Shown: positions 26,141 to 44,051, counted from the stretch's first letter. The stretch is 64,000 bases of DNA from Syntrophomonadaceae bacterium (GCA_007135125.1 SLJK01000053.1:3974-67973); one strand, 5' to 3'. The notes: generated by a model from the letters alone, not told the origin. Program-made: numbers and translations.

Positions 26141-26275
26141 TAAGCCAGTTGCATCCCAGAAAGACAAATAAGATATAGTGAAAAAATAAGGAATTACGCT
26201 GAAAAACAACTGTTTACTTTTTGGGACTACAGCATAAATAATAATTATCAGAAAACTAAGGAGGTTTTATTCCCA

Positions 26276-26497
26276 ATGAGAGAGAAAGTGGAAACTGCCC
26301 TGGAAAAAATCCGTCCCGCCCTTCAGGCCGATGGCGGAGATGTATCCCTAATTGCAGTTGAAGAGGACGGTACTGTTAAGGTACAGTTAACCGGCGCCTG
26401 CGGGAGCTGCCCCATGTCTACCATGACCCTGAAGCAGGGTATTGAAAGGCTGCTTAAAGAACAGGTTCCCGGTGTTAAAGAAGTCCTCCAAGTTTAA
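26276..26497 (+). CDS. nfuA: NifU-like (Nfu-type) Fe-S cluster assembly protein
   Basis: 73 aa; Nfu C-terminal domain with CGSCP motif. Confidence 0.8.
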   Translation: MREKVETALEKIRPALQADGGDVSLIAVEEDGTVKVQLTGACGSCPMSTMTLKQGIERLLKEQVPGVKEVLQV

Positions 26498-27859: not shown

Positions 27860-29023
27860 ATGATGGCCCGGGAAGTATACCTCGATAACAGCTCTACTAC
27901 CCCCATGCACCCCGAGGTGCTAAAAGAAATGCAAACTTTACTGGAAAGAAAATACGGAAACCCTTCCTCCCTGCACCGCCTGGGTAACGATGCTGAAAGA
28001 ACTCTTAGTTCTTCTCGCCAGCTGTTGGCAGAACAGCTGGGGGTAAAAAGTGGGGAAATTTATTTTACTTCCGGCGGGACAGAATCCAACAATATGGCTC
28101 TAGCGGGGATAGCCCGCCGCAATTACAGGCGCGGCAAGCACCTGTTAACTTCCAAAATAGAACATCCCTCTGTGCTGGAACCACTAAAAAAACTAGAAGT
28201 GGAAGGTTTTCAGGTTACTTACCTTGAACCTGACCGTAATGGCCTTCTTGACCCTTTTCAGCTTGCCGAAACAGTAACCCCAAAAACAATACTGGTAAGC
28301 GTAATGCACGTCAATAATGAAATCGGCACCATCCAGCCTATCGCAGAAATTGCGGCCGCTATCAAACGAAAAAATCCACAAACCATAGTACATGTGGATG
28401 CGGTACAGTCATTTACAAGGCTTCCTCTATCCCCACGAGAACAGGGGATAGATGTTCTCAGCATAAGTGCCCATAAATTTCACGGACCCAAAGGTACCGG
28501 CGCCCTTTATATCCGTGGAGGTATACTGGTGGAGCCATTATTAGCAGGAGGCGAGCAAGAAAAGGGATTGCGGGCAGGCACAGAGAATACACCCGGCATC
28601 GCTGCCATGGCTTTGGCGGCCCGTCTGAACAGTGAGAACAGGAAAGAGAAAACCGCCCAGTCGAAAATTTTCAAGGAAAAGATGCTATCCTCTATTGAAA
28701 CGGCACATCCCTGGGCACAGATCAACGGCCCACGTAAAGCCGAAGGTGTACCTAATATACTCAATATTTCTTTCCCGGGGCTTAAAGGAGAAATTATCCT
28801 GCACGCCCTGGAAGAACATAATATTTTTGTTTCTACCGGCTCTGCCTGCCATTCCAGAAAAAATAAGCCCAGCCATGTTCTGGAAGCGATCGGCGCAGAA
28901 AAGGCCGCCCTGGATGGAGCTATTAGAATAAGCTTTTCCAGTATGAATACCCCGGAAGAAATAGAGTACGCCGCTTCCAAAATTCCGCAGGTTATTTCGG
29001 AACTTAAAGCTTTTATGAGCTAA
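27860..29023 (+). CDS. nifS: Cysteine desulfurase (NifS/IscS class, NifZ-like partner of ThiI)
   Basis: 387 aa; PLP-lysine motif (SISAHKFHGPKG), active Cys loop (STGSACHS). Confidence 0.85.
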   Translation: MMAREVYLDNSSTTPMHPEVLKEMQTLLERKYGNPSSLHRLGNDAERTLSSSRQLLAEQLGVKSGEIYFTSGGTESNNMALAGIARRNYRRGKHLLTSKIEHPSVLEPLKKLEVEGFQVTYLEPDRNGLLDPFQLAETVTPKTILVSVMHVNNEIGTIQPIAEIAAAIKRKNPQTIVHVDAVQSFTRLPLSPREQGIDVLSISAHKFHGPKGTGALYIRGGILVEPLLAGGEQEKGLRAGTENTPGIAAMALAARLNSENRKEKTAQSKIFKEKMLSSIETAHPWAQINGPRKAEGVPNILNISFPGLKGEIILHALEEHNIFVSTGSACHSRKNKPSHVLEAIGAEKAALDGAIRISFSSMNTPEEIEYAASKIPQVISELKAFMS

Positions 29024-29329
29024 AAGGTTGTTCACCTAGAATACTTTTATAATGCAGAGTAGCGTTAAAATAGCTCTTTTTTTGTTGCAATAAATTTAAG
29101 ACACACTCTCTCAAATGAAGGAACGATAGAGATCTTGTAAATTTTACACGACTAGAAAATTATGATAAGATAAATATAAAGAAGGTTGAATAATGAAAAT
29201 TCTTTTGGCAAGAGATTCAAATAGGTGGTAGCAACTGCTTAGCTAACCATTCATCTCCACAAAATCTAAGAAAAATGGAAAGATCAAAAGCATAATTGTA
29301 AAATAATGAGATAGGGAGGTGACGCAAAG

Positions 29330-29416
29330 GTGGATTGGAATATTATTTTTATCGGCTTATTCATCATGGCACTTATCATAAGTATAATAGTAGCAAAAGA
29401 TAATCCCACCGATTAA
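29330..29416 (+). CDS. 28-aa hydrophobic small protein (MDWNIIFIGLFIMALIISIIVAKDNPTD), GTG start with strong SD
   Basis: RBS AGGGAGGTGA 8 nt upstream of the GTG; single predicted TM helix; located in the convergent intergenic region between nifS and uspA. Confidence 0.35.
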   Translation: MDWNIIFIGLFIMALIISIIVAKDNPTD

Positions 29417-29493
29417 ACTTAAGGTAAACCGTATTCCGACATTATTTGCCATACTCCCCCCAAAAAGCTTATTATTGCTTTCCTGGCTGAAGT

Positions 29494-29958
29494 TTATTTA
29501 ACAACCAACACCTTTTTTTCACAATTCTGCACGACTGCATTACTAACACTTCCCAGCATTATACCCCAACCATCTCCTCTGCCTCTACTGCCAATTACAA
29601 CCAAATCAAAATTTCCTTTTGTAGCTGCCTCACATATAGTTTTTGCAGGGTGCCCTTCTTTTAACATTGTACTTACCTCAATATTTTTTCTTTTAAAAAC
29701 CTCTGCAGCGGTCTCCAAAACCTTTTTTCTTTCTTTACTCTCCTTCTCATCCAGGTTTTCCAAATGTTTACGCATTTCCGTTTCAGTTACGGCTGATTCA
29801 CCATCAGATAAATACCACGATGATTTAGCATATTTTCTCTTATACGTATGAAGCAGTGTAATAACAGCAACTTCTTTCATAGCCTCAGCAAGTTTGGCCG
29901 CTTCTTCTACCACTCGATTACTATTTTCAGAACCATCTGTGCAAACTAAAATTTTCAT
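29494..29958 (-). CDS. Universal stress protein (UspA family)
   Basis: 154 aa; Usp ATP-binding motif (VVIGSRGRG...GSVS). Confidence 0.85.
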   Translation of the reverse strand: MKILVCTDGSENSNRVVEEAAKLAEAMKEVAVITLLHTYKRKYAKSSWYLSDGESAVTETEMRKHLENLDEKESKERKKVLETAAEVFKRKNIEVSTMLKEGHPAKTICEAATKGNFDLVVIGSRGRGDGWGIMLGSVSNAVVQNCEKKVLVVK

Positions 29959-30059
29959 AGAAGTATTCCTCCTTTCCCATATTATCTGTCAAAGCAGGTT
30001 GTTATTTTAATTCCATAATTATTCGAATAATCCTGCCTGTTACAAATTAACGCTATTAA

Positions 30060-31448
30060 CTAACGATAGGATAGAATATCGCCTTCCGCCTTTTTTCCCA
30101 CCCTAACGTTACCGTCCTTAAATTCATTGGCCAGTTTTATCCAGCGACATGAAAGAATGTCAAGGTGTTCAGCAATATCCCCTTCCAAAGTTTGTTCTGC
30201 ACCCGGATGTGTTGGAAAAGCTCCGCAATCTTTGATCATCCTTCTAAGAGATGCAGGTGCATCTATTATAGGACAGGGAGCCAGATGGTTGTCGTTAAAG
30301 GGTTGTTCTTTCTGATAAGCTTTAAAAAAAGGATTCAATAAAACCTCTTTCAGGCTTTTCCCTTTGATGTTATCTACAGCAAAATGCACAAAAGCACACG
30401 GCTCCACATCACCTGCTGCATTTATATGAAAGTATTGCCTCCCTCCGGCAATACACCCTTTTGTATACTCTCCATCGTTCCAAAAGTCTGCAATAAATAT
30501 GGGCTTGTTTTTTCTCAGTTCCCTAATCCTTTTTACCAACCAGAGCCTTTGTTCCGGCGTAATCATCAGGTCAATATTAGGGTTTCGCCCTACAGGAATA
30601 TAGTGAAAGGACCAGATATAAATAATCCCCTTCTCGATGAGAAAATCAATAAATTCATCGCTGAAAAGCTCATATACATTTTTCGTGGTAACTGTTAGTG
30701 AAGCTCCGCTAAAAACCCCTCTTTCACGCAGGAGATCCATTGAATTGATCGCCTTATCAAAAGTACCCGCTCCCCTGCGAGCGTCAGTGCTATCACGCCA
30801 ACCTTCAAGACTTATGGTAGGCGTGAGGTTAGCCAGTTCCGCAAGACGATCTGCCGTTTTTTCATCAATCAGTGTTCCATTAGTATATACCATGAATACT
30901 GAATCTGTATGCTCAGCAGCTATTTCCAGCAGGTACGGATAGCAAAAAGGTTCTCCTCCTGAAAGAACAATCCAGTGTATACCCAGTTCCCTCGCTTCTG
31001 TTATAATGCGGTTTAAAAGCTCTGGTTCCAGGCGGTCAACCTTGTTGTATTCACCAGCCCAGCAACCCTCACAGCGCAGATTGCAGGCGGAAGTAGGATC
31101 AATCAGAATTAAGCAGGGAACGGAAACACCCATTTCACTGGATATTTTTTCCCTTTTGGAACGGCCCAGAAAGGTGCCATTTATTACCCAGGAATTGATG
31201 GCATTAGATAACATCCTAGGATTACAAACGATTCGCTGTGCCTGTTCCATAACAGGTAAATTATCTTGGAAATGATTTTTTAAGGATCTCACAATATTAA
31301 TATGCTCAGGAATTACAGCTACCTTTTCCAAAAAATTTAATATAGTAAATATATTTTTTTGCGGTTCCCTGGAAATATAACCGATAGCCTTCTCTACAGC
31401 ATACTCAGCAGCCTGCTTCTTAACCGATTCGAATGCCACCTTCCTCAT
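30060..31448 (-). CDS. Radical SAM/SPASM-domain protein with about 110-aa N-terminal extension (RRE-like); maturase-type enzyme of unknown substrate
   Basis: 462 aa; CNLRCEGC (CxxxCxxC) at residues about 121-128; C-terminal SPASM-like Cys motifs (CIAGGRQYFHINAAGDVEPCAFVHF, CPIID, CGAF). Confidence 0.75.
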   Translation of the reverse strand: MRKVAFESVKKQAAEYAVEKAIGYISREPQKNIFTILNFLEKVAVIPEHINIVRSLKNHFQDNLPVMEQAQRIVCNPRMLSNAINSWVINGTFLGRSKREKISSEMGVSVPCLILIDPTSACNLRCEGCWAGEYNKVDRLEPELLNRIITEARELGIHWIVLSGGEPFCYPYLLEIAAEHTDSVFMVYTNGTLIDEKTADRLAELANLTPTISLEGWRDSTDARRGAGTFDKAINSMDLLRERGVFSGASLTVTTKNVYELFSDEFIDFLIEKGIIYIWSFHYIPVGRNPNIDLMITPEQRLWLVKRIRELRKNKPIFIADFWNDGEYTKGCIAGGRQYFHINAAGDVEPCAFVHFAVDNIKGKSLKEVLLNPFFKAYQKEQPFNDNHLAPCPIIDAPASLRRMIKDCGAFPTHPGAEQTLEGDIAEHLDILSCRWIKLANEFKDGNVRVGKKAEGDILSYR

Positions 31449-31544
31449 CCTCCTTCTTTGCTGTTTTACATTTGCTATTTACTCAACCGAAAAGTCTTCT
31501 AGATCGTTTAGCAATCCAAACTTCGGGGCAACATCAAAAAAATT

Positions 31545-31979
31545 TCACTTATTATCTCGACATTGTTCACAATAACCAAAAAAACGAGTGGAGGAAGAAA
31601 CCACCAGAAAGTTTGTCTTACCATGCGATGGAGGAGTTACATTCCTTGAGTCTGATTCCAATATTTTACCGCAAGAAAGACAGATGAGGTGATTATGCCG
31701 GCCATCTCTTTTGAGTTCATAGCGGATGCGGCCATCCTCCAGAACTAGGGATTGTACGATAGAAAGCCTGGAGAAAAGCTCTAATGTTCGGTAGACCGTG
31801 GCTAACCCAAGTTGGGGACAATTATTTTTAGCTATACGGTATATTTCTTCCGCAGTTAGATGCTCTTCCTCTTTGCTGCCATATAGAACAAGCAGAACAG
31901 ATTTACGTTGAGGAGTAAGACGAAATTTGCTTTCTACAAGTTTTTCTGTCCCTGGAATTTTTTCGCAACGTGAAGACAT
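31545..31979 (-). CDS. Fur-family metalloregulator (Fur/PerR/Zur type)
   Basis: 144 aa; winged-HTH N-terminus; HNHLICLSCGKI and CEQC structural Cys pairs. Confidence 0.85.
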   Translation of the reverse strand: MSSRCEKIPGTEKLVESKFRLTPQRKSVLLVLYGSKEEEHLTAEEIYRIAKNNCPQLGLATVYRTLELFSRLSIVQSLVLEDGRIRYELKRDGRHNHLICLSCGKILESDSRNVTPPSHGKTNFLVVSSSTRFFGYCEQCRDNK

Positions 31980-32069
31980 AAATTTAATCCTCCCTGCTTA
32001 TATAGCTTGATCCTACCGAACAATAGAGCTAGTAAAAAATTGCTTTTCTTAGATTTACTGATAGGAATA

Positions 32070-32116
32070 GGTGACTGTTCAATCATCTTGGCTTCGATTA
32101 TGATAGAACAGTCACC
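32070..32116 (-). repeat. Strong stem-loop (11-bp perfect arms GGTGACTGTTC/GAACAGTCACC with extended imperfect pairing) between the DUF5320 gene and fur
   Basis: Exact reverse-complement arms read in sequence; no adjacent U-tract. Confidence 0.55.
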
Positions 32117-32156
32117 CAGGCAACATTCATTTATAATTTCTCAAATTACAGTAGGA

Positions 32157-32429
32157 TTAATCTTCATAATATTTAGCTACGTCTTCTAAATTATTTTCCA
32201 ACATTCTTAGCTGCTCTCTGAAATATTTTGCCTTTTCTTCTAGTAATCTTTTTTCTCCAACTGCTCTGCTACCGTAAAACAATGGTGTGCGGTATCCAGG
32301 CTTCCACCAACGCCTGCGCCCCTGCACAGGGTTGGCAAAGCCTGGCATTGGATATCCTGCACAGTAACCTGCAAACCTTCCTTTCCCAGAGCCAGACCCT
32401 AAGGGCCCTGTACCATCTCCACCAGGCAT
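32157..32429 (-). CDS. DUF5320-family small protein (Gly-rich N-terminus with GYCAGY motif, C-terminal coiled coil)
   Basis: 90 aa; MPGGDGTGPLGSGSGKGRFAGYCAGY...; paralog of 37903-38220; strong RBS (AAAAAAAGGAGGGA). Confidence 0.8.
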   Translation of the reverse strand: MPGGDGTGPLGSGSGKGRFAGYCAGYPMPGFANPVQGRRRWWKPGYRTPLFYGSRAVGEKRLLEEKAKYFREQLRMLENNLEDVAKYYED

Positions 32430-32520
32430 TCTCTAATCCCTCCTTTTTTTGTTATGTTCGAAGTACTCTGCACAAACATTTTGGACTTATATTCATATTA
32501 ATATTAAACAATATATTGGA

Positions 32521-32538
32521 CATATGTCAATTTCTATT
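32521..32538 (-). promoter_or_regulatory. Conserved box 1 (CATATGTCAATTTCTATT; minus strand carries TTGACA -35 then a TTAATA -10-like element 17 nt downstream), copy A
   Basis: 16 of 18 identical to 41204-41221; reverse complement AATAGAAATTGACATATG contains TTGACA. Confidence 0.55.
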
Positions 32539-32589
32539 AAAGGCTGAATAATTGTATAAGAAGCGCTTAGAACAAATAAGCAGCAATTT

Positions 32590-32614
32590 TTAATGATAAT
32601 GAGAATCTTTCTCT
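32590..32614. promoter_or_regulatory. Conserved box 2, Fur-box-like (TTAATGATAATGAGAATCTTTCTCT), copy A
   Basis: 20-bp core GATAATGAGAATCTTTCTCT identical to 41279-41298; 16/19 match to the classical Fur box GATAATGATAATCATTATC; 74 bp from box 1. Confidence 0.5.
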
Positions 32615-32694
32615 ACGATACGGTATACTTCTTATGATGTTAATAAGATTTAAGCAAAATCATAATTACACTATGAATAGCACTTAGGTTAAAA

Positions 32695-33303
32695 TTAAAC
32701 ATAGTAAATGTTGTCTGCCAATTCAATACATTCTTCTGAATCGTGTGTAACATAAAGGGTCGTCAGTATTAACTTCCTTTGCAGCCTCTTAAATTGACGC
32801 CTGAGTCGAATAACAATATTTTCATCGAGGCTGTTTAAAGGCTCGTCCATCAACAAAACACCTGGACGTGGAGCAAACGTTCTTGCTAATGCTACCCTCC
32901 GCTTTTCTCCACCGCTTAAATTTTGCGGGTAGCGATTTTCCAGGTGGGTGATTTCAAAAAGTTCCATCAATTCATCTACCTGTTCCTTTATTTTCTCTGG
33001 GGGAATTTTTTTTATTTTCAAACCGTAAGCAATATTATTGAAAACAGATAGGTGCGGGAACAAATGGAGGCCCTGGAACAGGTAACCAATATTTCTTTTT
33101 TGGGGTGGAACACAATCCATAGGTACATCGTTAAAAAAAACATACCCTTCATAAGCAATCAACCCTGCAACGATATTAAGCAAAGTCGTTTTGCCTGATC
33201 CTGTAGGGCCATAAATAACCCGCAATTCACCACGGTCAACCTTTAAAGAATAAGAACGTTCTACAAAACTTGGTTTAGCGTCGCATACTTTTATTTCAGG
33301 CAT
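32695..33303 (-). CDS. ABC transporter ATP-binding protein (NitT/TauT-like)
   Basis: 202 aa; Walker A GPTGSGKTT, signature LSGGEKRR, Walker B LLMDEP. Confidence 0.85.
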   Translation of the reverse strand: MPEIKVCDAKPSFVERSYSLKVDRGELRVIYGPTGSGKTTLLNIVAGLIAYEGYVFFNDVPMDCVPPQKRNIGYLFQGLHLFPHLSVFNNIAYGLKIKKIPPEKIKEQVDELMELFEITHLENRYPQNLSGGEKRRVALARTFAPRPGVLLMDEPLNSLDENIVIRLRRQFKRLQRKLILTTLYVTHDSEECIELADNIYYV

Positions 33304-34063
33304 CCGGGTTCCTCCATTTAGAAGTTAACTTATTTTCTATCAATAGAAATATTTTTTCTGAACAGAAACACAACAAAGATAAAATTAGTAAGCAAACAAT
33401 AATAATGTCGACTCTCAGTAAGCTTTCACCTTTCATTAATAATGATCCTAAACCAGTGGATATGGCTACCATTTCTGCAGCAATAATTACTCGCCAAGCC
33501 ATGCCGGCTTCCAGTTTTAAGCCCGTAAAAATGTTGGGTAATGCCAGCGGAAGCACTATGGTGGTTAAAACCTGCCACTCTGAAGCCCCCAGCATTTTTG
33601 ATGCTTTGACCAAACTTAGATCAACACTTTTCACACCCGTCATAGTGTTGTAAAGCATAGGGAAAAAAGCACAAATAAAGACAATCATCACCGGCAGTAA
33701 TTCATTAATACCTATCCATAGAATAAAAAGCGGCAACCATCCAATAGCAGGGATGGGGTAAAGAATGCTAATAATTGGACTAATATTGCTTCGAATAACC
33801 TCATTCCATCCCATAGCGATTCCTAAAACTAAACCGGTACAAGCTCCCAAGAAAAACCCGGCTGCCACTCTTAAAAAACTTGCCTTTACATGGTTAAATA
33901 GCAAACCTTCGCTTACTAGTAAACAAAAACACTTAAACACCTGTGAAGCAGGTGGAAATAAACTTTGATCTGGGAAAAAGTATCGTGAGCTAATTTCCCA
34001 GACGATAAACAGGAGAATAACAGGTTTAAGTGTATTTAAGTAAGAAATAATTATTTTAGCCAC
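33296..34063 (-). CDS. ABC transporter permease (NitT/TauT family)
   Basis: 255 aa; 6 TM; BPD_transp_1-type EAA-like loop; 8-bp overlap with the ATPase gene. Confidence 0.8.
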   Translation of the reverse strand: MAKIIISYLNTLKPVILLFIVWEISSRYFFPDQSLFPPASQVFKCFCLLVSEGLLFNHVKASFLRVAAGFFLGACTGLVLGIAMGWNEVIRSNISPIISILYPIPAIGWLPLFILWIGINELLPVMIVFICAFFPMLYNTMTGVKSVDLSLVKASKMLGASEWQVLTTIVLPLALPNIFTGLKLEAGMAWRVIIAAEMVAISTGLGSLLMKGESLLRVDIIIVCLLILSLLCFCSEKIFLLIENKLTSKWRNPDA

Positions 34064-34075
34064 GAAAGCACCTAT

Positions 34076-35083
34076 TTAAAAATTTTGAAAAAGAATTTCT
34101 TCTGCAGGAAAGGAGCTTTGAATATAATCCAAGGTTTCCAGGTAATCTATAGCTTCCTGAATTTCTTCGTGCTGCAGCTTTACACAATATTTATGATTGG
34201 TCAACGCTTTTTCCAAAATAGCAAGTGTAAATCTATAATTATCCCGGGGGAAAGCGTCACCTGTTTGTTCAATTATACCCGATGTTACATTAAGGTGATT
34301 GAAAATGATCTCGGCTGTTTCATGTGGATTATCATTAACCCAAGCAGTTGCCTTTGCGTTTACCTGTAGCATTTTTTCTACCAAGTCTGGATTTTCTTTA
34401 ATTAATTCATCTTTAACCACAAGGACACTGCCTTGCATTTCAGGCCATATTTCTGCGCCAGAAATAAACATTTTAAATCCACAGGCTTCGGCCAATGAAG
34501 CATAATGCTCAGGCAACATTACTACATCCAGATCACCTTTAATAAACAAAAGTATCTGTTTATGAGGGGTTAATCGTGATATATTTTCCAAGACTCTTTC
34601 TCTATCAAGATCGTGTTTTTCAATAAGGAGGTGAAGAGCTACATCTGCGGCACTGCCTTCCCTGGGACATCCTATACGAATATCTTTTTTCTCTAAATCG
34701 TTTAAAGTCTTGATTTCTGTTGGATTAACCACCATTCCATATCCATATTTATGAGTACCAGCAATAATTTTCAGATCAACCCCGCCATTAGCATAAGCTA
34801 TAATAGCCGGAGTCAGGCAAATATAAGCAGCCTGTACCTCCCCGCGGGTCAGTGCTGCAGCAAGTGCCAAACCCGTTTCATAGGTTTCATATGTGCCAAC
34901 ATTTATGCCTTCTTCTGCGAACCAGTTCTTTTCTAACGCAATAAAAGCAGCAGCAGCATGACTGTTCTGCTCCAGAGCTAGTCCAATTTCCCCCTGTTTC
35001 TCTCGGCATCCGGAAAAGACAAGAAAACTGTTCAACAACAATAACAATATTATAAATGATGCACTTTTTTTGACAAAAACCAC
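34076..35083 (-). CDS. ABC transporter substrate-binding lipoprotein (NMT1/THI5-like, NitT/TauT family)
   Basis: 335 aa; signal peptide + lipobox (FSGC); periplasmic binding fold. Confidence 0.75.
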   Translation of the reverse strand: MVFVKKSASFIILLLLLNSFLVFSGCREKQGEIGLALEQNSHAAAAFIALEKNWFAEEGINVGTYETYETGLALAAALTRGEVQAAYICLTPAIIAYANGGVDLKIIAGTHKYGYGMVVNPTEIKTLNDLEKKDIRIGCPREGSAADVALHLLIEKHDLDRERVLENISRLTPHKQILLFIKGDLDVVMLPEHYASLAEACGFKMFISGAEIWPEMQGSVLVVKDELIKENPDLVEKMLQVNAKATAWVNDNPHETAEIIFNHLNVTSGIIEQTGDAFPRDNYRFTLAILEKALTNHKYCVKLQHEEIQEAIDYLETLDYIQSSFPAEEILFQNF

Positions 35084-35105
35084 GGCACCTTTCCCCCTCC
35101 GTTAA

Positions 35106-35849
35106 TTAAGTACTCAATGGACAGAACCAAGACAATTTCAGTAGCCGCGATGAGCCTGCAATCGTTGTTCCGTAATAAATTATTTTCTCCTTATCCATAA
35201 ACATGTTGATAGTTCTGTTGGTAAGGACAGTGCCGGTGACCAAAGCCAGGTCACACCACTCCAGGTTTTCAGAAGTAGAAGCTTCTCCTTCCACAGAAAC
35301 CTGCCCAACTTTCTTTCCCCAGTTTTCCCTATCGAGATCGTTAATGCGCAGCGGGAAATTAACTTCCAGAACTTCCGCCATTCGCGGTTGAAAACCCACC
35401 AGGCTGATCTTTGGATGAACCAGGTGACAATAATTTTTCAGATATACCGGTAATTCACGGGCACATGACTGGGGCTGCTCATTTTTGCAATGCTCGCTGG
35501 CCGGGATCAATCTCAGGTATCGCATAGTAGCGTTTAAAGCAGCTATAAAAATGGTTATTTCTTGGCTGTTATGTAAGGGAAGCTTCAAAACTTGGGAAAG
35601 GCTCCCATGAAAACTACCTACACTACTGCTGTATGCCTGTCCTGCTACTCCCTTAAAGACAGCCTCTGTTAAGGATTCTTTGCCTTTTAATAAAGCATAG
35701 TCTTTCTCCTTTGGGTTACCAAGGGCTTGCTCGGGAGAAAGTGGGCGAGCCGTGATTTTTACCTGGTCCTCAAAAAGATTGTTATCGATGAGGATATTTT
35801 TCCACGTTGACCATAGTTTTTTATATATATCTGTTTCTGTAAAGAACAT
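35106..35849 (-). CDS. DUF364/DUF4213-like protein (putative heavy-metal chelation / Rossmann-like domain)
   Basis: 247 aa; C-terminal LVTGTVLTN...YGTTIAGSS pattern typical of DUF364; first gene of the ABC operon. Confidence 0.5.
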   Translation of the reverse strand: MFFTETDIYKKLWSTWKNILIDNNLFEDQVKITARPLSPEQALGNPKEKDYALLKGKESLTEAVFKGVAGQAYSSSVGSFHGSLSQVLKLPLHNSQEITIFIAALNATMRYLRLIPASEHCKNEQPQSCARELPVYLKNYCHLVHPKISLVGFQPRMAEVLEVNFPLRINDLDRENWGKKVGQVSVEGEASTSENLEWCDLALVTGTVLTNRTINMFMDKEKIIYYGTTIAGSSRLLKLSWFCPLST

Positions 35850-35974
35850 AGCTAAGAACCTCCTGTTTTTATTTGAAATTTGAAATATCAGTTAATAATT
35901 GAATATCATAAAGCGTTATACTTAGTTTAATATAACGAATTGCAAAAAAAACACGGTAATGCTTAACTTTTCTT

Positions 35975-36000
35975 TTTTCTATAAAACTTTTCTATAAAAC
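35975..36000. repeat. Tandem 13-bp direct repeat TTTTCTATAAAAC x2, followed by a weak hairpin/A-run (weak terminator for the minD-like operon on the minus strand)
   Basis: Read directly; lies between the second MinD-FeS gene stop and the DUF364 gene start. Confidence 0.4.
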
Positions 36001-36050
36001 ACAAAAAAACCCTTACGGGACATAAAGAAAATATTTATACAAAAAGAGCA

Positions 36051-36920
36051 TCAGATTGCTAAATATTTTTTGACCTGCTCCCAAGTTTCGTTAATTCTCT
36101 TTGCTGCAGGACTATCCCCGTATTCCACAACTGATACACCTTGGAGCATTGCTTCCGTAACCTTCCTATCCAAAGGAACTTTACCTGCTACGGGCACTTC
36201 AGCGGAATTACAGTACTCTTCTATCTTGTATGTATTCTCTTCGTCCAAATCATAGCGATTAATACAGACCAGTGCAGGTACTTTAAAATGCCTGCAAACT
36301 GCCAGCACACGCTCCATGTCATGAACTCCAGGCAAAGTAGGTTCGGTCACTACCAGTGCAACACTAACACCTGCCAAAGAGGCTATAACAGGACAGCCGA
36401 TACCTGGCGGGCCATCGGTAATAATACGCTGTTTGCTTTCTTCATTAGCAACCTCCTTGGCTTTATTCCGGACCAGGGTAACCAACTTGCCGGAATTCTC
36501 CTCCGCTATCCCGAGGCGTGCGTGCACCAAGGGGCCATGAGCAGTTTGAGAAATAAACCACTGCCCTGAAATCACCTCTTCATAAACTATAGCTTCTTCA
36601 GGACAGGAATGGTAGCAAACACCGCATCCTTCGCAGGAAAGGAGATCAACATCGTAAGCATTCGAAATTGCATCAAAACGACAAAGTTCACGGCACAAAT
36701 TACAGCCCGTGCACTTATCATGATTAATAAATGCTTTCTTCGAAGCCCGAAAATCATGTCGCTCCAAGAGGGCAGGATGCATTATTAGACTCAGGTTAGC
36801 AGCATCAACATCACAATCTGTAAAGACGCTATCCGTGGAAAGAGCAGCAAAACAACCCGTAATAGAAGTTTTGCCGGTGCCACCTTTTCCACTTATAACA
36901 GATATTTCTTTCATATTCAT
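36051..36920 (-). CDS. MinD/ParA-type P-loop ATPase with inserted 2x[4Fe-4S] ferredoxin domain
   Basis: 289 aa; deviant Walker A SGKGGTGKTS; CTGCNLCRELC and CEGCGVCYHSCP ferredoxin motifs. Confidence 0.85.
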   Translation of the reverse strand: MNMKEISVISGKGGTGKTSITGCFAALSTDSVFTDCDVDAANLSLIMHPALLERHDFRASKKAFINHDKCTGCNLCRELCRFDAISNAYDVDLLSCEGCGVCYHSCPEEAIVYEEVISGQWFISQTAHGPLVHARLGIAEENSGKLVTLVRNKAKEVANEESKQRIITDGPPGIGCPVIASLAGVSVALVVTEPTLPGVHDMERVLAVCRHFKVPALVCINRYDLDEENTYKIEEYCNSAEVPVAGKVPLDRKVTEAMLQGVSVVEYGDSPAAKRINETWEQVKKYLAI

Positions 36921-36939
36921 TTCCCTTCCATCCTGCTTT

Positions 36940-37788
36940 TTATTTATAAAGCTTCATCCGTAACAGGATTTGATCCCACAATTCCCTGAACCGTTTTTCC
37001 CAGAATGAGGAATGCATTGCTATTGGTTCACCCCTGGCATAAAGAACAGCTAACTCTCTGTCCCAGGGAATCTGCATAAGAACAGGCAGTCCTTCTTCCC
37101 GGCAGTATCTCTCAACATCTCTATTGCCCACATCTGCCTGATTAATAAGCACACCTGCTGGAACATGAAGCTTTTTTAACATCTCCACGGCCAGTTCCAG
37201 GTCGTGAAGACCAAAGGGAGTAGGTTCCGTTACCAACAGGCAAAAATCACTTTCCCGTATTGTTTCAACTACCGGGCAGGAAGTACCAGGCGGAGCATCA
37301 ATCAGAACATGTTTTAAAGGATCAATTTTCTTTTTTAGGGCATTGATGACTGGAGGGGACATGGCCTCTCCAGGATTTAAGCTCCCTTGTAAAAAATCAA
37401 ATCCGTATGCTTTTCCCTCTTCTATCAGGCCTATACCACGAGGTACTTCTGAAATAGCTCCTTTCGGGCAAAAGTAGCTGCAGCCTCCACAGCCATGGCA
37501 AAGTTCGGGGAAAACCAGTACACTTTCTCCAAGAACTGCCAGGGCATTGAAGGCACATATCTCTGAACACCGTCCACATTTGCTGCATTTTTCTTCATTT
37601 ATCTCAGGAACTAAAATATTGACCGTTTCAGAAATATTAAAATCAGGTTTCAGAAAAATGTGCGCATTAGGTTCCTCCACATCGCAGTCTATAAACTGAA
37701 GCTCTTCCTGGCTTTGCGTCAGGGCCAGGTTAACAGCAACGGTGGTTTTCCCTGTTCCTCCTTTTCCACTGGCTATCGAAATAATCAT
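36940..37788 (-). CDS. MinD/ParA-type P-loop ATPase with inserted 2x[4Fe-4S] ferredoxin domain (paralog)
   Basis: 282 aa; SGKGGTGKTT; CSKCGRCSEIC and CHGCGGCSYFCP. Confidence 0.85.
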   Translation of the reverse strand: MIISIASGKGGTGKTTVAVNLALTQSQEELQFIDCDVEEPNAHIFLKPDFNISETVNILVPEINEEKCSKCGRCSEICAFNALAVLGESVLVFPELCHGCGGCSYFCPKGAISEVPRGIGLIEEGKAYGFDFLQGSLNPGEAMSPPVINALKKKIDPLKHVLIDAPPGTSCPVVETIRESDFCLLVTEPTPFGLHDLELAVEMLKKLHVPAGVLINQADVGNRDVERYCREEGLPVLMQIPWDRELAVLYARGEPIAMHSSFWEKRFRELWDQILLRMKLYK

Positions 37789-37862
37789 TTATATCTCTCC
37801 AATTTATAGTGCTTATCATAATGCTGCAAAGTGTAAACTAGTACATCAAAAATTATGTACCG

Positions 37863-37895
37863 ACCCGGGAGGCTGTGGACACTTTACTCCCGGGT
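37863..37895 (-). repeat. 9-bp perfect-stem hairpin (ACCCGGGAG-15nt-CTCCCGGGT) 8 nt after the DUF5320 stop, with a T5 run 10 nt further on the minus strand; possible intra-operon attenuator
   Basis: Read directly; T-run is displaced from the stem, so terminator strength is doubtful. Confidence 0.35.
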
Positions 37896-37902
37896 CCTGA
37901 CC

Positions 37903-38220
37903 TTACTGGCTCTTCTGCTCATTTTCTAAATCAGCCAGCTTTTTTTCAATTTCCTCAAGTTCTGATCTTACGGCTTCTGCCTGCTGCTTTAGATAGTCAG
38001 CCTCTTCTTCAGGTTCAGGCTCCGGAACAAGCATCCAGGGCGGATAAGGAAAATAGCCCGCACCATACCGGTGGCATGGCCCAAACCAGCCAGGGTAAAA
38101 ACCTGCAGCAGCAGCAGCACTATTGGTATAAGCACCGCCTCTAAAGCCACCGCTTCCTGGAACCCAACCAGTGCCCCTTTTCCAAAATCCGGGGCCGTAC
38201 CAATATCTACCTCTTGGCAT
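37903..38220 (-). CDS. DUF5320-family small protein (second paralog)
   Basis: 105 aa; Gly/aromatic-rich N-terminus, one Cys, acidic linker, C-terminal coiled coil (LKQQAEAVRSELEEIEKKLADLE). Confidence 0.8.
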   Translation of the reverse strand: MPRGRYWYGPGFWKRGTGWVPGSGGFRGGAYTNSAAAAAGFYPGWFGPCHRYGAGYFPYPPWMLVPEPEPEEEADYLKQQAEAVRSELEEIEKKLADLENEQKSQ

Positions 38221-38306
38221 CGTTCTTCCCTCCCTTCAGTTAATATGTTCCCTTTCTCCCTAATTGTTTGCGCAACTTTCATTTAATACTTTTTGCCGGT
38301 CATATT

Positions 38307-39077
38307 TTACTCTTCGTGACAGTCATGAGTCCCACCATGCTGACCATGCTCACAAAGGCTTTCCCCTCCTGCCAGGCTGCCATAAAGATAGCTGTTGATA
38401 GCTTCTTCTACCGGTCCCGTAACACCGATAATTGTTTTGATCTCCTGTTCAGCAAAGAGATTCTGAGCCCGAGGACCCATTCCGCCGGCAATCACACAAT
38501 CAACACCTTTTTCCGCCAGGAAACGAGGCAAAAAGCCGGGCTGATGGCCTGGATTAAGGACGGTAGTTTTATTCGTCGCTACACCGCCTTCAATATCTAC
38601 CAGGGTATAGGCAGAGCAGCGTCCAAAATGCTGTGCTACTTCTGTTCCCTCAGTAGCGACAGCAACTTTAAGATCCTGCGAAAGGTGTTCGGTCCCCCTT
38701 CTCTCAGAGGAGGAGTCCAATCCAGCATGGGGGCTCACGGTTGCCTCGACCACCGGGCTGCAGTTCCCATGAAGGTACTGTTCCAGGGCTTCAGTTAGAG
38801 GCATTTCTGAAATTGAATAGACCTCCATCTCAGCTGATTTTAAAATGCTTGAGGCGTTAGGTCCCACATCACCTGTAAGAAGCACATCGGGTTTTTGTTC
38901 TAGCAAAAACTGTGCTGCCTTAACTCCCGCCCCACTACCCTCCACGGAGCCGGGGTTAGGCATAAAAGTCCATGTTTCTTTTTCCGTATCGAAAAAAGCA
39001 TAAAATGGGCACCTTCCGAAACGCGGTTCAAGTGAGGAGTTCTCTTCTTTACCGTTAGCACTAATAGCTATAATCAT
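38307..39077 (-). CDS. Tandem NifX/NifB-C-terminal-like (dinitrogenase FeMo-cofactor-binding fold) domain protein
   Basis: 256 aa; two copies of the ...HFGRC(P/S)xYxxVD...GVDxVIAGGMG... pattern; Cys/His-rich tail CEHGQHGGTHDCHEE. Confidence 0.8.
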   Translation of the reverse strand: MIIAISANGKEENSSLEPRFGRCPFYAFFDTEKETWTFMPNPGSVEGSGAGVKAAQFLLEQKPDVLLTGDVGPNASSILKSAEMEVYSISEMPLTEALEQYLHGNCSPVVEATVSPHAGLDSSSERRGTEHLSQDLKVAVATEGTEVAQHFGRCSAYTLVDIEGGVATNKTTVLNPGHQPGFLPRFLAEKGVDCVIAGGMGPRAQNLFAEQEIKTIIGVTGPVEEAINSYLYGSLAGGESLCEHGQHGGTHDCHEE

Positions 39078-39079
39078 TA

Positions 39080-39880
39080 TTACATTCCTCCTGTTTGTGT
39101 TTTCATTTGATGTGATTCCAGCAATTTATGGAACAGATCACTGCTATATTCCTCTACAGAGCCACTATCACAGCATTTTGCCAGACTTTGATCAAGAGGA
39201 AGACTGGCTAAGAATGGAATACCCGTCAAACTTGCCACTTCCGCTCCTTTACTCTTACCAAATATTTCTATTTTTGTTTGACAATGGGGGCAATACTGAT
39301 AGCTCATATTTTCCACCAGGCCCAAGATTGGGATATCCATGGCACCTGCCATCTTCATGGCCTTTTTGACGACCATTATCGCCAGATCCTGGGGTGAACT
39401 AACAATAACCAACCCATCTAATGAAATGGACTGCATAACGGTGAGCGGAACATCTGACGTGCCTGGTGGTAGGTCAATAAAAAGATAATCCAACTCACCC
39501 CACTCCACTTCTCTCCAAAATTGACTTACTGTATTACCGATGAGCGGCCCGCGCCAGATAACAGGGTCATCTTCATGCATTAACAACAAATTTAATGACA
39601 TAATCTTTATACCCAGTTTACTCTGGGTAGGAGCAAGACCTTTTGCCCCGTCAGAAACCTTTAATCCAAACATTTTTGGTATACTGGGGCCGGTAATATC
39701 TGCATCCAAGATACCCACTTTATACCCGTGTTTGCTGGCACCCGCCGCTAGCAGGGCAGTTATCGAGGATTTTCCCACTCCTCCTTTCCCGCTCATAACG
39801 GCAATGACATGTTTAACATCAGGGCGGATTATTTTTTCCGGTCTTTTGCTTTCTTGATTTTGAGAAGCTTTACAATTCAC
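39080..39880 (-). CDS. apbC: Mrp/NBP35/ApbC-family Fe-S cluster carrier ATPase
   Basis: 266 aa; SGKGGVGKSS Walker A; conserved CPHC motif (YQYCPHCQ). Confidence 0.85.
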   Translation of the reverse strand: MNCKASQNQESKRPEKIIRPDVKHVIAVMSGKGGVGKSSITALLAAGASKHGYKVGILDADITGPSIPKMFGLKVSDGAKGLAPTQSKLGIKIMSLNLLLMHEDDPVIWRGPLIGNTVSQFWREVEWGELDYLFIDLPPGTSDVPLTVMQSISLDGLVIVSSPQDLAIMVVKKAMKMAGAMDIPILGLVENMSYQYCPHCQTKIEIFGKSKGAEVASLTGIPFLASLPLDQSLAKCCDSGSVEEYSSDLFHKLLESHQMKTQTGGM

Positions 39881-39903
39881 TCAAACAGATCTCCTTTCGA
39901 CTC

Positions 39904-40692
39904 TCAATTTTTTATTAACAGGTGTGTAAAAAGGTAGGGATTAAGCACTTCAATATGAGTTCCCTTCATCCCCAGCGAACGAGATTCTATTACACCAGCA
40001 CTTTCAAGCTTGCGCAGGGCATTAACAATAACAGAACGGGTTATACCCGCTTGGTCAGCAATTTTGCTTGCCACCAACAACCCTCTATCGTTTTGAAGTT
40101 CATTAAAAACTTCCTCCAATGCCTCATGCTCCGAATATGAAAGTGTACTAATAGCCAACTTGCTGATTTCCTGTTGTCGTATTTCCTCTTCCGATTTTTC
40201 CGCCTTGGAACGCAGTATCTCCATACCCACTACCGTTGCACCTGTTTCGGAAAGAATAAGATCTTCGGGTTCAAAAACTTCATTAAAGCGAGCCAGCAGT
40301 AAGGTACCCAACCGCTCCCCGGCGCCTAAAATCGGTATGACAGTAACTAATTTTCCTGTAAACAAGCATTCTGCATCTTCCCAAAAAACACATCTATTAC
40401 GTTTCTGTTTAAGGTTGTCCCTCAATTCATCATCCCTTAAAAGAAACTGGTTATACTTTTCCGGGAAATACATCTTTTTTAAAACCCGATTAACCATGAT
40501 TTCACACTCGTATTCATCGACAAGAGCATATCCCATAATAATACCTGCTCTGTCCACGATATACACATTTGCCTTAATTACATCTTTGAGCACCATGGCA
40601 ATTTCCTTAAAATCAACGTACCTGCCTTCACCTTTTTGAAAAATTTTGTTAATAGAACGGGTTTTTTCCAACATTTGAGAGGCTATCATCAT
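39904..40692 (-). CDS. codY: GTP-sensing pleiotropic repressor CodY
   Basis: 262 aa; near-identical C-terminal wHTH to B. subtilis CodY (ASKIADxxGITRSVIVNALRKLESAGVIESRSLGMKGT); GAF-like N-domain. Confidence 0.85.
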   Translation of the reverse strand: MMIASQMLEKTRSINKIFQKGEGRYVDFKEIAMVLKDVIKANVYIVDRAGIIMGYALVDEYECEIMVNRVLKKMYFPEKYNQFLLRDDELRDNLKQKRNRCVFWEDAECLFTGKLVTVIPILGAGERLGTLLLARFNEVFEPEDLILSETGATVVGMEILRSKAEKSEEEIRQQEISKLAISTLSYSEHEALEEVFNELQNDRGLLVASKIADQAGITRSVIVNALRKLESAGVIESRSLGMKGTHIEVLNPYLFTHLLIKN

Positions 40693-40740
40693 TATCGCCC
40701 TCTTTCTTATTTAAATTATTACACATTTATAACTCTCCCT

Positions 40741-41118
40741 TCAGGTCTTATCTTTGAGCCGGCTTCTGTAATCAAGTATAGCCTGGTGCAGCGCCTCTGC
40801 CCCAAGATTGGAACAGTGAACCTTGGGGTCGGGTAGCCCCCCCAGTGCCTCAAGGACATCAAGATCTTCTATTTGCATAGCTTCATCGAGGCTTTTCCCC
40901 TGTGCTAACTCAGTTAACACACTGCTTGTAGCTATAGCTGCAGGGCAACCATAAATCTGAAATTTAATGTCACAGATACGCTCTTCCTTTACTTTTATAT
41001 TGATGCACAGATAATCACCGCAGGAAGGATCACCAATGGCTCCTATACCGTCAGCATCAGCTATAGTGCCTACATTGCGGGGATTCGAAAAATGTTCTAA
41101 TACTTTCTCAGCGTACAT
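40741..41118 (-). CDS. iscU: IscU/NifU N-terminal-like Fe-S scaffold protein
   Basis: 125 aa; conserved scaffold Cys residues (GDPSCGD, GCPAAIA, HCSNLG). Confidence 0.8.
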   Translation of the reverse strand: MYAEKVLEHFSNPRNVGTIADADGIGAIGDPSCGDYLCINIKVKEERICDIKFQIYGCPAAIATSSVLTELAQGKSLDEAMQIEDLDVLEALGGLPDPKVHCSNLGAEALHQAILDYRSRLKDKT

Positions 41119-41203
41119 GAAACCATCCTTTCATAAATTACCGCTAATTATTTTTTTCTCCATTATGTACTTATGTCCAATTAAATGTTAACCATAAAGT
41201 GTG

Positions 41204-41221
41204 CATATGTCAATTACTATT
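41204..41221 (-). promoter_or_regulatory. Conserved box 1 (CATATGTCAATTACTATT; TTGACA -35 on the minus strand), copy B upstream of iscU
   Basis: 16/18 identical to 32521-32538; the flanking leader is also similar (ACTTATgTcCAaTTAAA vs ACTTATaTtCAtATTAA). Confidence 0.55.
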
Positions 41222-41270
41222 TTGAACTTTCTGCGCCTTTGGGGAGCGAATAGGCAGGAATATACTTGAA

Positions 41271-41298
41271 TTAATGCTGATAATGAGAATCTTTCTCT
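41271..41298. promoter_or_regulatory. Conserved box 2, Fur-box-like (TTAATGCTGATAATGAGAATCTTTCTCT), copy B
   Basis: 20-bp core identical to copy A; 75 bp from box 1; lies in the divergent serC/iscU intergenic region. Confidence 0.5.
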
Positions 41299-41446
41299 GT
41301 TTATAGCCTGCTGGCAAATTAGAAAGATTTTCTTACAGCTGTTTTTATTTAAGTCAAGATCAGGTATAATGAACTAATCTGGTAGTTCTCTTGCAATCTC
41401 CACAGGAACCGGAGAAGAACAATCGTTTACTCAAATAATTCTTATA

Positions 41447-42550
41447 TTGATGGGAGGATTTCTCGTGCCGTACAGAATCTTTAATTTTAATCCTGGCCCA
41501 GCCACTCTTCCGCTGGAAGTTTTGGAAGAGGCCCGAGAAGAAATGTTAAACTACCGCAACACCGGGCTTTCTATAATGGAAATGAGCCACCGCTCCCCTG
41601 AATTTGAAGAAATCATAGACTCTGCTCAGTCACTTTTCCTGGAATTGGCAGAACTCTCAACTGCATACCAGGTACTTTTTCTCCAGGGCGGAGCCAGCTT
41701 GCAATTTTCCATGATCCCCTTCAATTTTCTAACCTCTGATACCACTGCTGATTATATTATCACCGGCAGTTTTGCCAAAAAAGCCATGCAGGAGGCGGCC
41801 AAGATAGGAAACACAAACGTGGCTGCCAGTAATGATGTAACAAACTATACTACCATTCCTCGCCCTGAAGACATTACTCTAAGCCCCAACAGCGCCTATC
41901 TTCACTTTACCACTAATAATACTATATATGGCACACAATGGAATTATGTGCCGGATAGCGGCACAGTTCCCCTCATTGCTGATATGTCCAGCGATATACT
42001 CTCCCGCAAAATAGAGATGCATAGATTTGCTTTGGTTTATGCCGGTGCCCAAAAAAACCTGGGTCCTGCCGGAGTTACTGCGGTTATTATCCATAAAAGC
42101 CTGTTAGAAAAAGCCTCTGCTTCTTTACCTGCAATGCTTAGTTACAAGACTCATGCTGAAAACGGATCCCTTTTCAATACTCCCCCCTGTTTTCCTATAT
42201 ACATTGTAAAACTGGTTCTGGAATGGATTAAGAAAAAAGGCGGCCTCAGCGCTATTCAGGAAACAAATGAGCAGAAAGCTGACCTTCTTTATCAGGCCAT
42301 CGATAACAGTGGTGGTTATTATATTGGGCATGCTGCAAAAGAGGACCGTTCTATCATGAACGTAACTTTCCGGCTCCCGGAAGAGGGACTGGAAAAAACT
42401 TTTCTGGAGGAAGCCGCTGCAGAGGGGCTTAAAGGGTTAAAAGGCCACCGCTCCGTGGGTGGTATAAGAGCTTCTATCTATAACGCCATGCCTTATGAAG
42501 GCTGTGAAGCCCTTGCCCAGTTTATGAAGGAATTCCCAAAAAAACACTAG
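41447..42550 (+). CDS. serC: Phosphoserine aminotransferase
   Basis: Class V aminotransferase family, N-terminal FNFNPGPATLP; ORF-track start is TTG at 41447, but the true start is more likely GTG at 41465, preceded by GGAGGA. Confidence 0.85.
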   Translation: MMGGFLVPYRIFNFNPGPATLPLEVLEEAREEMLNYRNTGLSIMEMSHRSPEFEEIIDSAQSLFLELAELSTAYQVLFLQGGASLQFSMIPFNFLTSDTTADYIITGSFAKKAMQEAAKIGNTNVAASNDVTNYTTIPRPEDITLSPNSAYLHFTTNNTIYGTQWNYVPDSGTVPLIADMSSDILSRKIEMHRFALVYAGAQKNLGPAGVTAVIIHKSLLEKASASLPAMLSYKTHAENGSLFNTPPCFPIYIVKLVLEWIKKKGGLSAIQETNEQKADLLYQAIDNSGGYYIGHAAKEDRSIMNVTFRLPEEGLEKTFLEEAAAEGLKGLKGHRSVGGIRASIYNAMPYEGCEALAQFMKEFPKKH

Positions 42551-42604
42551 TCAGATAAATTTGTTCACCAAAGCAGTCCTTTAAAAAATACCTTTCCTGG
42601 GGAG

Positions 42605-43804: not shown

Positions 43805-43859
43805 TACAGCTGGCGCAGCAGAAAAAAAGAGGGCACAACAGCTACTCACCAAAGTAGGT

Positions 43860-44051
43860 TTATGATTCCCTGTCACAGTAAAGCATACCATCTTCAGCCA
43901 GGTTTTCCTTTTTTATTTCTCGAATGACAATCTTGACGGCCTCCGGTTGGCAATTAACCGTTCTTACCAGGGACCTGGTTACTTCTTTAACCATCTCCCT
44001 TTTTTGTTCTATTGTCCTTCCCTCAAACATCTCGATCTGCACTATGGGCAT
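43860..44051 (-). CDS. 4-oxalocrotonate tautomerase family protein
   Basis: 63 aa; N-terminal MPIVQIEMFEGRT with catalytic Pro1. Confidence 0.75.
   Translation of the reverse strand: MPIVQIEMFEGRTIEQKREMVKEVTRSLVRTVNCQPEAVKIVIREIKKENLAEDGMLYCDRES

Follow-up and report, generated by a model that had tools for sequence, protein, structure and literature searches.

Two Fe-S-related operons of a Syntrophomonadaceae bacterium appear to share a composite sigma-A promoter design with a predicted distal Fur-type operator

Two minus-strand operons in the 64-kb stretch of DNA analysed here (the window) carry the same set of promoter elements: a sigma-A core promoter bracketed by two copies of a palindromic operator (boxes 1 and 3) and a Fur-type operator (box 2) far upstream. 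Our preferred reading, to which we assign a probability of roughly 55%, is a composite sigma-A promoter at which boxes 1 and 3 would form the operator pair of a dimeric repressor and Fur, bound distally at box 2, would modulate both operons.

Results

Two loci carry the same boxes at nearly the same spacing

The earlier note on this DNA had described an 18-bp box 1 and a box 2 with an identical 20-bp core shared by two loci, and a pattern search of the 64-kb window bore this out. The 20-mer GATAATGAGAATCTTTCTCT occurs exactly at 32595-32614 (locus A) and 41279-41298 (locus B), with no further copy in the window at up to three mismatches (expected 0.00); a T precedes every copy of box 2 (32594, 41278), so that the conserved block is 21 bp long. 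Box 1, CATATGTCAATTnCTATT, lies at 32521-32538 and 41204-41221, which are its sole matches in the window at up to three mismatches (expected 0.36). Start to start, the two boxes are 74 bp apart at locus A and 75 bp apart at locus B, as had been claimed. Alignment of locus A with locus B added an element absent from the earlier description, box 3 (32477-32498 and 41161-41182). Transcription was taken to start about 7 nt past each -10 hexamer, which would put the start near 32494 at locus A and 41178 at locus B and the centre of box 2 near -113. The previous estimate had been about 120 bp; the far-upstream position stands and the figure is corrected. The elements are:

32594..32614, minus strand: box 2 of locus A, predicted Fur-family operator; exact copy, 16/19 against the Fur consensus; centre 32607, 77 bp upstream of the -35; identical 21-mer in loci L093, L109, L055 and L079 of relatives
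32521..32538, minus strand: box 1 of locus A; -35 hexamer TTGACA at 32530..32525, inside the upstream copy of the palindromic operator TTGACATATGTCCAA
32501..32506, minus strand: -10 hexamer TAATAT of locus A, 18 nt after TTGACA; promoter scan 10/12
32477..32498, minus strand: box 3 of locus A, ATATGAATATAAGTCCAAAATG, from the A-versus-B alignment; second, diverged copy of the box 1 operator over the inferred +1; position weight matrix (PWM) score 28.0
41278..41298, minus strand: box 2 of locus B; 21-mer identical to that of locus A; centre 41291, 78 bp upstream of the -35
41204..41221, minus strand: box 1 of locus B; -35 hexamer TTGACA at 41213..41208
41185..41190, minus strand: -10 hexamer TAACAT of locus B, 17 nt after TTGACA; promoter scan 10/12
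41161..41182, minus strand: box 3 of locus B, AATTGGACATAAGTACATAATG; second operator copy over the inferred +1; PWM score 29.9; right half kept in the sister locus L109

A pair of identical 20-mers separated by 8.7 kb might point to a family of repeats, and the earlier note had itself listed a common dispersed repeat among the outcomes that would count against its reading. A dispersed repeat should show many copies and similarity that runs past the core; the window holds two copies, both at promoters, with near-random identity in the spacer and flanks that are not conserved. Two copies are likewise present in the metagenome-assembled genome (MAG) of the sister species and two in MAG DUQX01, always at promoters of related operons. 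A riboswitch or leader RNA was also considered and rejected: an Rfam search of 29000-44000 gave no match at E<=1, and with the start inferred downstream of both, boxes 1 and 2 would fall outside the transcript. We therefore consider it extremely improbable that the boxes are a dispersed repeat, the remnant of a mobile element or a structured leader RNA.

The shared promoters precede operons with Fe-S-related genes

Both operons had been described as led by DUF5320. This is the case for operon A; operon B begins with IscU, and DUF5320 is its fifth gene. The Fur-family gene claimed for the interior of operon A is indeed there, as a Pfam FUR match. Gene content, from Pfam and NCBIfam searches and, for operon A, the alignment of the Fur clade described below, is as follows:

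29494..32429, minus strand: operon A
32157-32429, minus strand: DUF5320 (Pfam)
31545-31979, minus strand: Fur-clade regulator (Pfam FUR)
30060-31448, minus strand: radical SAM/SPASM protein (Pfam)
29494-29958, minus strand: Usp (Pfam)
32695..41118, minus strand: operon B
40741-41118, minus strand: IscU (NifU_N), first gene (Pfam)
39904-40692, minus strand: CodY, second gene, a bona fide CodY (Pfam)
39080-39880, minus strand: Mrp/NUBPL (Pfam)
38307-39077, minus strand: double Nitro_FeMo-Co protein (Pfam)
37903-38220, minus strand: DUF5320, fifth gene (Pfam)
36940-37788 and 36051-36920, minus strand: two MinD-Fer4 proteins (Pfam)
35106-35849, minus strand: DUF364 (Pfam)
34076-35083, 33296-34063 and 32695-33303, minus strand: NMT1-type ABC transporter (Pfam/NCBIfam)

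The gene order of operon B is repeated in other assemblies of the species, and proteins identical to those of the window are found in GCA_007126665.1, GCA_007122375.1 and GCA_003563065.1, which we take to be soda-lake MAGs. Among contigs with CodY homologues the gene context is kept only in the sister species, and for this reason the Fur clade was used as the anchor for comparison.

Several features of the gene set are recorded here in their own right. CodY is the second gene of the iscU operon both in the window (39904-40692) and in the sister species (L008:2720-3499), and in a more distant lineage (L010:9778-10789) a box 1-type promoter drives codY directly, with a degenerate Fur-like box about 59 nt upstream; CodY expression may thus be tied to the Fe-S regulon. 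The DUF5320 protein of operon A is small and Gly/Pro-rich with a C-terminal coiled coil, and its gene adjoins that of a radical-SAM/SPASM enzyme whose best NCBIfam matches, every one well under its cutoff, include peptide maturases. The two might conceivably be related through peptide modification; a literature search on DUF5320 returned nothing relevant.

Box 2 belongs to a widespread class of Fur-family operators

Measured against the classical 19-bp Fur box of E. coli and B. subtilis, GATAATGATAATCATTATC, both copies of box 2 agree at 16/19 positions, as previously stated, and no other site in the window does so (expected 0.02). Fur boxes have been described as three hexamers (6-6-1-6) or as two overlapping 7-1-7 repeats (PMC11353095). 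On the plus strand box 2 of locus A reads TGATAAT GAGAAT C TTTCTCT, with a core palindrome GAGAA-N3-TTCTC. It shares with the classical box the hexamer layout (GATAAT-GAGAAT-C-TTTCTC) and half-sites that start with TGA, and its left heptamer TGATAAT is perfect; it differs in a degenerate right arm, the overlapping repeat TGAGAAT-C-TTTCTCT keeping 5/7 pairs relative to the 7-1-7 inverted repeat TGATAATnATTATCA.

When the pattern GAGAANGATTCTCATTATCA (19 specified bases) was searched against a single genome for each species, it gave 97 matches at 96 loci, set against a chance expectation of about 4 by our own estimate. The matches span Firmicutes, Actinobacteria, Gemmatimonadota, SAR86, Planctomycetota and others; 70 of them have T at the central base, 17 have C, 8 have A and 2 have G. 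When adjoining genes were sampled, all ten encoded metal-uptake proteins or FUR: three FeoA, two ZnuA, two siderophore-type binding proteins, one TonB-dependent receptor, one ABC-3 permease and one FUR. The A/G-centred variant is found mainly in Bacillota and Dethiobacteria. In Dethiobacteria MAGs it covers roughly +1 to +26 of feoA promoters with consensus hexamers. The L087 copy begins 7 nt past the -10 of a perfect TTGACA-17-TATAAT promoter into feoA, and the L014 copy begins 13 nt past a TTGACA-17-TAAAAT promoter into feoA. In the closest named relatives, then, the sequence class of box 2 is that of the iron-uptake (feoA) operator, and the metal-gene neighbours together with the feoA promoters indicate that it works as a Fur/Zur operator in many bacteria. 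The assignment of box 2 itself as a Fur-family operator is well supported by these comparisons.

The setting of the window copies is of another kind. They adjoin IscU and other Fe-S genes, and the overlap with -35, -10 or +1 that is typical of classical repression is absent at both loci and present only at the feoA promoters of relatives. The view that so distant a position is atypical for simple repression thus held up.

A metagenome scan for the lineage-specific box 2 yielded 15 loci and no new lineages; several of its matches fall within coding sequences of unrelated marine contigs, look like chance and were set aside. The exact 20-mer was also seen within coding sequences of the related marine contigs L117, L122 and L128, before the stop codon of a conserved ORF, where it is probably a chance occurrence unrelated to regulation. 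The CodY box AATTTTCWGAAAATT and the CtsR box were compared by eye with boxes 1 and 2, and neither gave a convincing match.

Two further Fur-like sites were noticed in the window (2 matches, 0.46 expected). The first, at 13002-13016, is a perfect 7-1-7 palindrome of Fur/PerR-like type (AGATAAT-T-ATTATCT) about 10 nt past a TATAAT and just upstream of a CooC/MinD-like gene (12171-12956, minus strand); from its sequence and placement it looks like a repressor operator of another Fur-family member. The second, AAATAATAATTATCA at 26236-26250, has two mismatches to the 7-1-7 consensus and lies directly before the ribosome-binding site of a gene for a 73-aa NifU-like protein (26276-26497).

Boxes 1 and 3 form an apparent operator pair around a sigma-A promoter

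The statement that box 1 supplies a TTGACA -35 was confirmed: a promoter scan found TTGACA-18-TAATAT at locus A and TTGACA-17-TAACAT at locus B, each at 10/12 and each of sigma-A layout, and the same TTGACA/-10 layout recurs in all related promoters examined. This description needs to be extended, as box 1 is also one of two copies of a putative palindromic operator that would define a regulon of its own. The motif TTGACATATG is found on 2 of the 25 TTGACA hexamers of the window and is therefore no general promoter feature. In relatives, the extended motif AATnrTAATTGACATATGyyCATwA was found at 17 sites, all of them intergenic, upstream of genes for NifX-like/IscU, MOSC, NifU_N-MOSC, Mrp, radical SAM or DUF5320 proteins or of codY; the box 1 motif also precedes Fur-clade genes.

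In L013 (twice) and in L008 the box 1 motif occurs in tandem pairs 34-39 bp apart. The first copy of each pair is the -35, and the second lies just past the -10 and has no -10 of its own, which makes it operator-like. Box 3 corresponds to such a second copy in diverged form, present in the window as well as in L016, L055, L079, L093, L087/L092 and L075; its consensus, TGrACATAAGnyCATAAT, has one base more than box 1 in the left arm. PWMs built from box 1/3 sites match the window at the two loci only, and their scoring on the opposite strand too indicates a palindrome of about 16 bp (wTGrnCAT|ATGnyCAw). The most economical reading of these sequences is that boxes 1 and 3 are an operator pair for a dimeric regulator and bracket the core promoter. 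The pair is apparently undescribed; a literature search with the box 1/3 motif strings returned primer sequences only and nothing relevant.

Other identities were tried for these boxes. Box 3 as a sigma-54, sporulation-sigma or tandem promoter was rejected, since in most lineages it is not followed by a -10 or -12 element at the right spacing, and direct reading of the sequence between box 2 and the start codons found no sigma-54 element TGGCAC-N5-TTGCW (-24 GG/-12 GC). The Gram-positive LexA (Cheo) box is CGAACATATGTTCG, and operators of ArsR/SmtB type take the form TGAACA..TGTTCA. An idealised palindrome drawn from boxes 1 and 3, TGAACATATGTTCA, departs from the LexA box at its outermost bases only; the actual sites keep one good GAAC/GTTC arm each (box 1 TTGAC-ATAT-GTyCA and box 3 TGrAC-ATAA-GnyCA, compared with CGAAC-4 nt-GTTCG), and the pairs sit on promoters of Fe-S genes, not SOS genes. 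The sites do not fit a LexA box.

The boxes and their spacing are conserved as the surrounding sequence diverges

The sister species, whose CodY is 81% identical to that of the window, is represented by L008/L109 and L093 and, from separate assemblies, by L125 and L123. Its orthologues of loci A and B both have the identical 21-mer, and those two copies are the only ones in its MAG. The intergenic region of locus B is 47% identical overall to that of L109, with islands of conservation at boxes 2, 1 and 3, the box 1 island taking in its upstream flank. In L055 and L079 the same 21-mer lies 62 nt upstream of a box 1 promoter that precedes a DUF5320 or NifX-like gene. The 21-mer is thus identical across four diverged lineages, in which the identity of DUF5320 to the window protein falls to as low as 46%. 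Contigs L093 and L109 (MAG CAZMLU01, isolate binchicken_co32_435) are labelled 'uncultured Desulfovibrionaceae'. They are syntenic with the window and encode the Bacillota-type CodY just mentioned; the mismatch probably reflects an error in the assigned taxonomy or a misbinning of these contigs.

Measured from the palindrome centre to the first T of TTGACA, box 2 lies 77 bp from the -35 at window locus A, L093 and L109, 78 bp at window locus B, 76 bp at L055 and L079, 67 bp at L014, 86 bp at L087 and L092, and 106 bp at L075. The 62-64 nt spacers of independent lineages are 19-42% identical (random expectation 28%), so that length is kept and sequence is not, and the other spacer lengths of 53, 72 and 92 nt differ from these by about 10 or 20 nt. 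With four independent spacing classes, a Rayleigh-type test gave p = 0.011 at a 10.0-bp pitch but only 0.10 at 10.5 bp. The test is weak, and the steps of about 10 bp suggest, and do not prove, a face-of-helix constraint. Separately, A-tracts (A6, A5, A4) recur at intervals of about 10 nt in the spacer of L055 (2307-2368) and in its equivalent in L079, together with a short inverted repeat, AAGCTTT/AAAGCT; these features may point to intrinsic curvature of the DNA between the distal site and the promoter.

In L014, L075, L083, L087 and L092 the box is a feoA operator placed back-to-back with the box 1 promoter. The divergent feoA promoter can by itself explain where box 2 lies in Dethiobacteria, and the association with box 1 promoters may therefore be partly inherited, not functional. 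Extended to the window, this would make box 2 a functionless relic of a divergent feoA promoter. We think this improbable: beside box 2 of window loci A and B, L093, L109, L055 and L079 there is neither feoA nor a conserved divergent promoter, locus A has no divergent gene at all, and the 21-mer and the 62-64 nt spacer length have been kept while the spacer sequence was randomised. Conserved spacing and the retention of box 2 where no feoA neighbour exists argue that box 2 acts on the box 1 promoter.

Box 2 might also be an ordinary repressor operator for a different promoter, be it the weak TTAACA-17-TATCGT site at locus A or an antisense promoter, or a roadblock to read-through from operon B. 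The promoter-like site at locus A (9/12, 32643-32615) does lie directly upstream of box 2, and no terminator is predicted between operon B and operon A, which follows it directly. In the sister species this promoter-like site has degraded, locus B and L109 lack it, and the number of promoter-like matches in the region equals that expected from shuffled sequence. This role for box 2 seems to us very improbable.

The Fur protein of operon A could bind a Fur box, and the boxes persist where its gene is lost

The earlier note had linked both operons to the Fur-family protein of operon A through a metal-responsive control unit. The part of this proposal that stands is a Fur-type operator common to both operons; the tie to the operon-A protein is weakened, as the sister species has lost fur from locus A and kept the boxes, and a link between box 2 and this protein is unproven. 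The protein belongs to a small clade (53-70% identity, with a drop to at most 46% beyond it). Its recognition helix, GLATVYRTLEL, is that of canonical Fur, and the sensing-site residues H40, D82, H95, H97 and E108 and both CxxC pairs are invariant in the clade; the third-metal-site His is missing (S-S in place of the canonical D-H), and three residues are deleted past the first CxxC, with the zinc site intact. With the canonical helix and sensing residues kept, the operon-A Fur could bind a Fur box.

These features, and the occurrence of the clade within the same gene set in L013, L014 and L017, favour an autoregulatory, metal-responsive loop in which the operon-A Fur binds box 2 and controls both operons. 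Three observations weigh against such a loop. Two independent assemblies of the sister species lack fur at locus A and, with it, two thirds of the radical-SAM gene (residues 1-332), and all three boxes are intact; no box 2 precedes the Fur-clade operons of L013, L014, L016 and L017; and the same type of box serves feoA in genomes where nothing ties that box to the clade. We regard the loop as a tentative and rather unlikely alternative. The sister locus A (L093:1400-3120; L123:600-4300) is decaying, with an extra DUF5320 gene after the promoter, and in L123 an IS element (ORFs of 399 aa and 248 aa) is inserted ahead of the second DUF5320 gene.

The Fur clade could instead bind the box 1/3 palindrome, with a housekeeping Fur at box 2. 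The clade is the sole regulator that recurs in box 1/3 operons (window locus A, L013, L014), and TGAACAT, the half-site of boxes 1 and 3, is similar to TGATAAT, that of Fur. Box 3 directly follows the -10 of a solitary fur-clade gene in L016, an arrangement that resembles autoregulation, and boxes 1 and 3 may yet prove to be the clade's own operator. The recognition helix, being that of canonical Fur, gives no reason to expect an altered specificity, and the half-sites are spaced 7-0-7 or 6-0-7, not 7-1-7. Moreover, the sister species keeps boxes 1 and 3 in spite of its loss of fur from locus A, and L017 has a fur-clade gene but no box 1/3. On balance this division of labour appears unlikely. 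Among the window ORFs compared with Pfam (40 of the 58 major ORFs, and a few more through Pfam marks), CtsR, CodY and the operon-A Fur were the only regulators, with no second Fur-family gene.

Discussion

A composite promoter with distal modulation by Fur

Under our preferred reading, loci A and B would be copies of one composite sigma-A promoter that controls an anaerobe-type Fe-S or 'orange-protein-like' gene set of IscU, Mrp, NifX-like, DUF5320 and MinD-Fer4 proteins. Box 1 would combine the -35 hexamer of a TTGACA-17/18-TAnnAT promoter with the upstream copy of the operator of about 16 bp, and together with box 3 it would make up a two-operator site for a putative dimeric repressor dedicated to this gene set. 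Centred near -113, box 2 would lie beyond the footprint of RNA polymerase, which it could not occlude from there, and would keep a constant helical phase with the promoter. An iron-sensing Fur homologue, either the operon-A protein or another Fur of the genome, would bind box 2 when iron is available and modulate both promoters from a distance, most probably by stimulation or by relief of the box 1/3 repressor. The outcome would be a coupling of Fe-S assembly capacity to iron supply.

The boxes, their conservation and the sequence class of box 2 are directly shown; the identity of the binding proteins and the sense of their action are what we infer from this arrangement, and the direction of regulation at box 2 in particular is a guess. 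Simple repression accounts less well for the position and spacing of box 2 than distal modulation, by activation or anti-repression, would. In E. coli, Fur acts as a repressor of suf, so that long-range or cooperative repression is equally possible in principle. Cooperative long-range repression, like the feoA relic and the operator of a weak upstream promoter discussed above, is possible and less well supported.

Comparison with known systems

Relative to the classical Fur regulon, the module differs in the position of its Fur box, centred near -113 and not over -35, -10 or +1, and in its targets, which are Fe-S assembly and carrier genes, not uptake genes. A parallel may lie in activation by holo-Fur, for which H. 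pylori nifS and oorDABC and promoters of Neisseria are examples. Activated Neisseria promoters carry upstream Fur boxes. Here, too, an operon for Fe-S biogenesis has its Fur box beyond the upstream edge of the polymerase footprint, and by analogy induction under iron-replete conditions would be the logical output. The organisms are unrelated, the present case is built from sequence, and the second operator pair suggests anti-repression as an alternative. In H. pylori, nifS is activated by iron-bound Fur, and whether Fur acts one way or another is set by the position of its box relative to RNA polymerase (PMC11353095).

The gene set has a counterpart in D. vulgaris, where two orp operons are controlled by OrpR, sigma-54 and IHF, share a palindrome at -131 and -88, and are the sole targets of OrpR (PMC8359166, PMC3897727). 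The likeness extends to the MrpORP-like, Nitro_FeMo-Co and MinD-Fer4 families and to the sharing of one distal palindrome by two operons. The stretch of operon B from Mrp to MinD-Fer4 (36051-39880) resembles the orp set, although its NCBIfam MrpORP match is sub-threshold (122 bits against a cutoff of 450). The control elements differ: in D. vulgaris an enhancer-binding protein recognises GGGCGYRTTTTGCGCCC at sigma-54 promoters and works with IHF, whereas here the promoters are of sigma-A type and the distal site is of Fur type.

Implications

Clusters of Mrp, NifX-like, DUF5320 and MinD-Fer4 genes are widespread in anaerobes and poorly understood, and to our knowledge the Desulfovibrio sigma-54/OrpR circuit is the only control of such clusters that has been studied. 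We put forward as a doubtful suggestion that the module represents an undescribed regulon of the orange-protein-like/DUF5320/MinD-Fer4 set in uncultured anaerobic Bacillota (Dethiobacteria and neighbours), in which a new palindromic operator pair would flank a consensus sigma-A promoter, and would combine with an enhancer-like Fur operator, in helical phase near -113, and a dedicated Fur clade without the third metal site to take the role of sigma-54, OrpR and IHF in Desulfovibrio.

Should box 2 prove to be a Fur target of the ordinary kind, the list of Fe-S operons under Fur would grow by two and no more, and as a variant of ordinary metal regulation the module is moderately interesting. A Fur operator and a dedicated second operator on the promoters of this gene set, in another phylum, would tie these genes to iron status, and the shared promoter design defines a compact regulon and provides DNA probes with which the regulator can be sought. 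If the preferred reading is true, a consensus sigma-A promoter with its Fur site phase-locked at -113 would offer a clean test case for the action of Fur at a distance.
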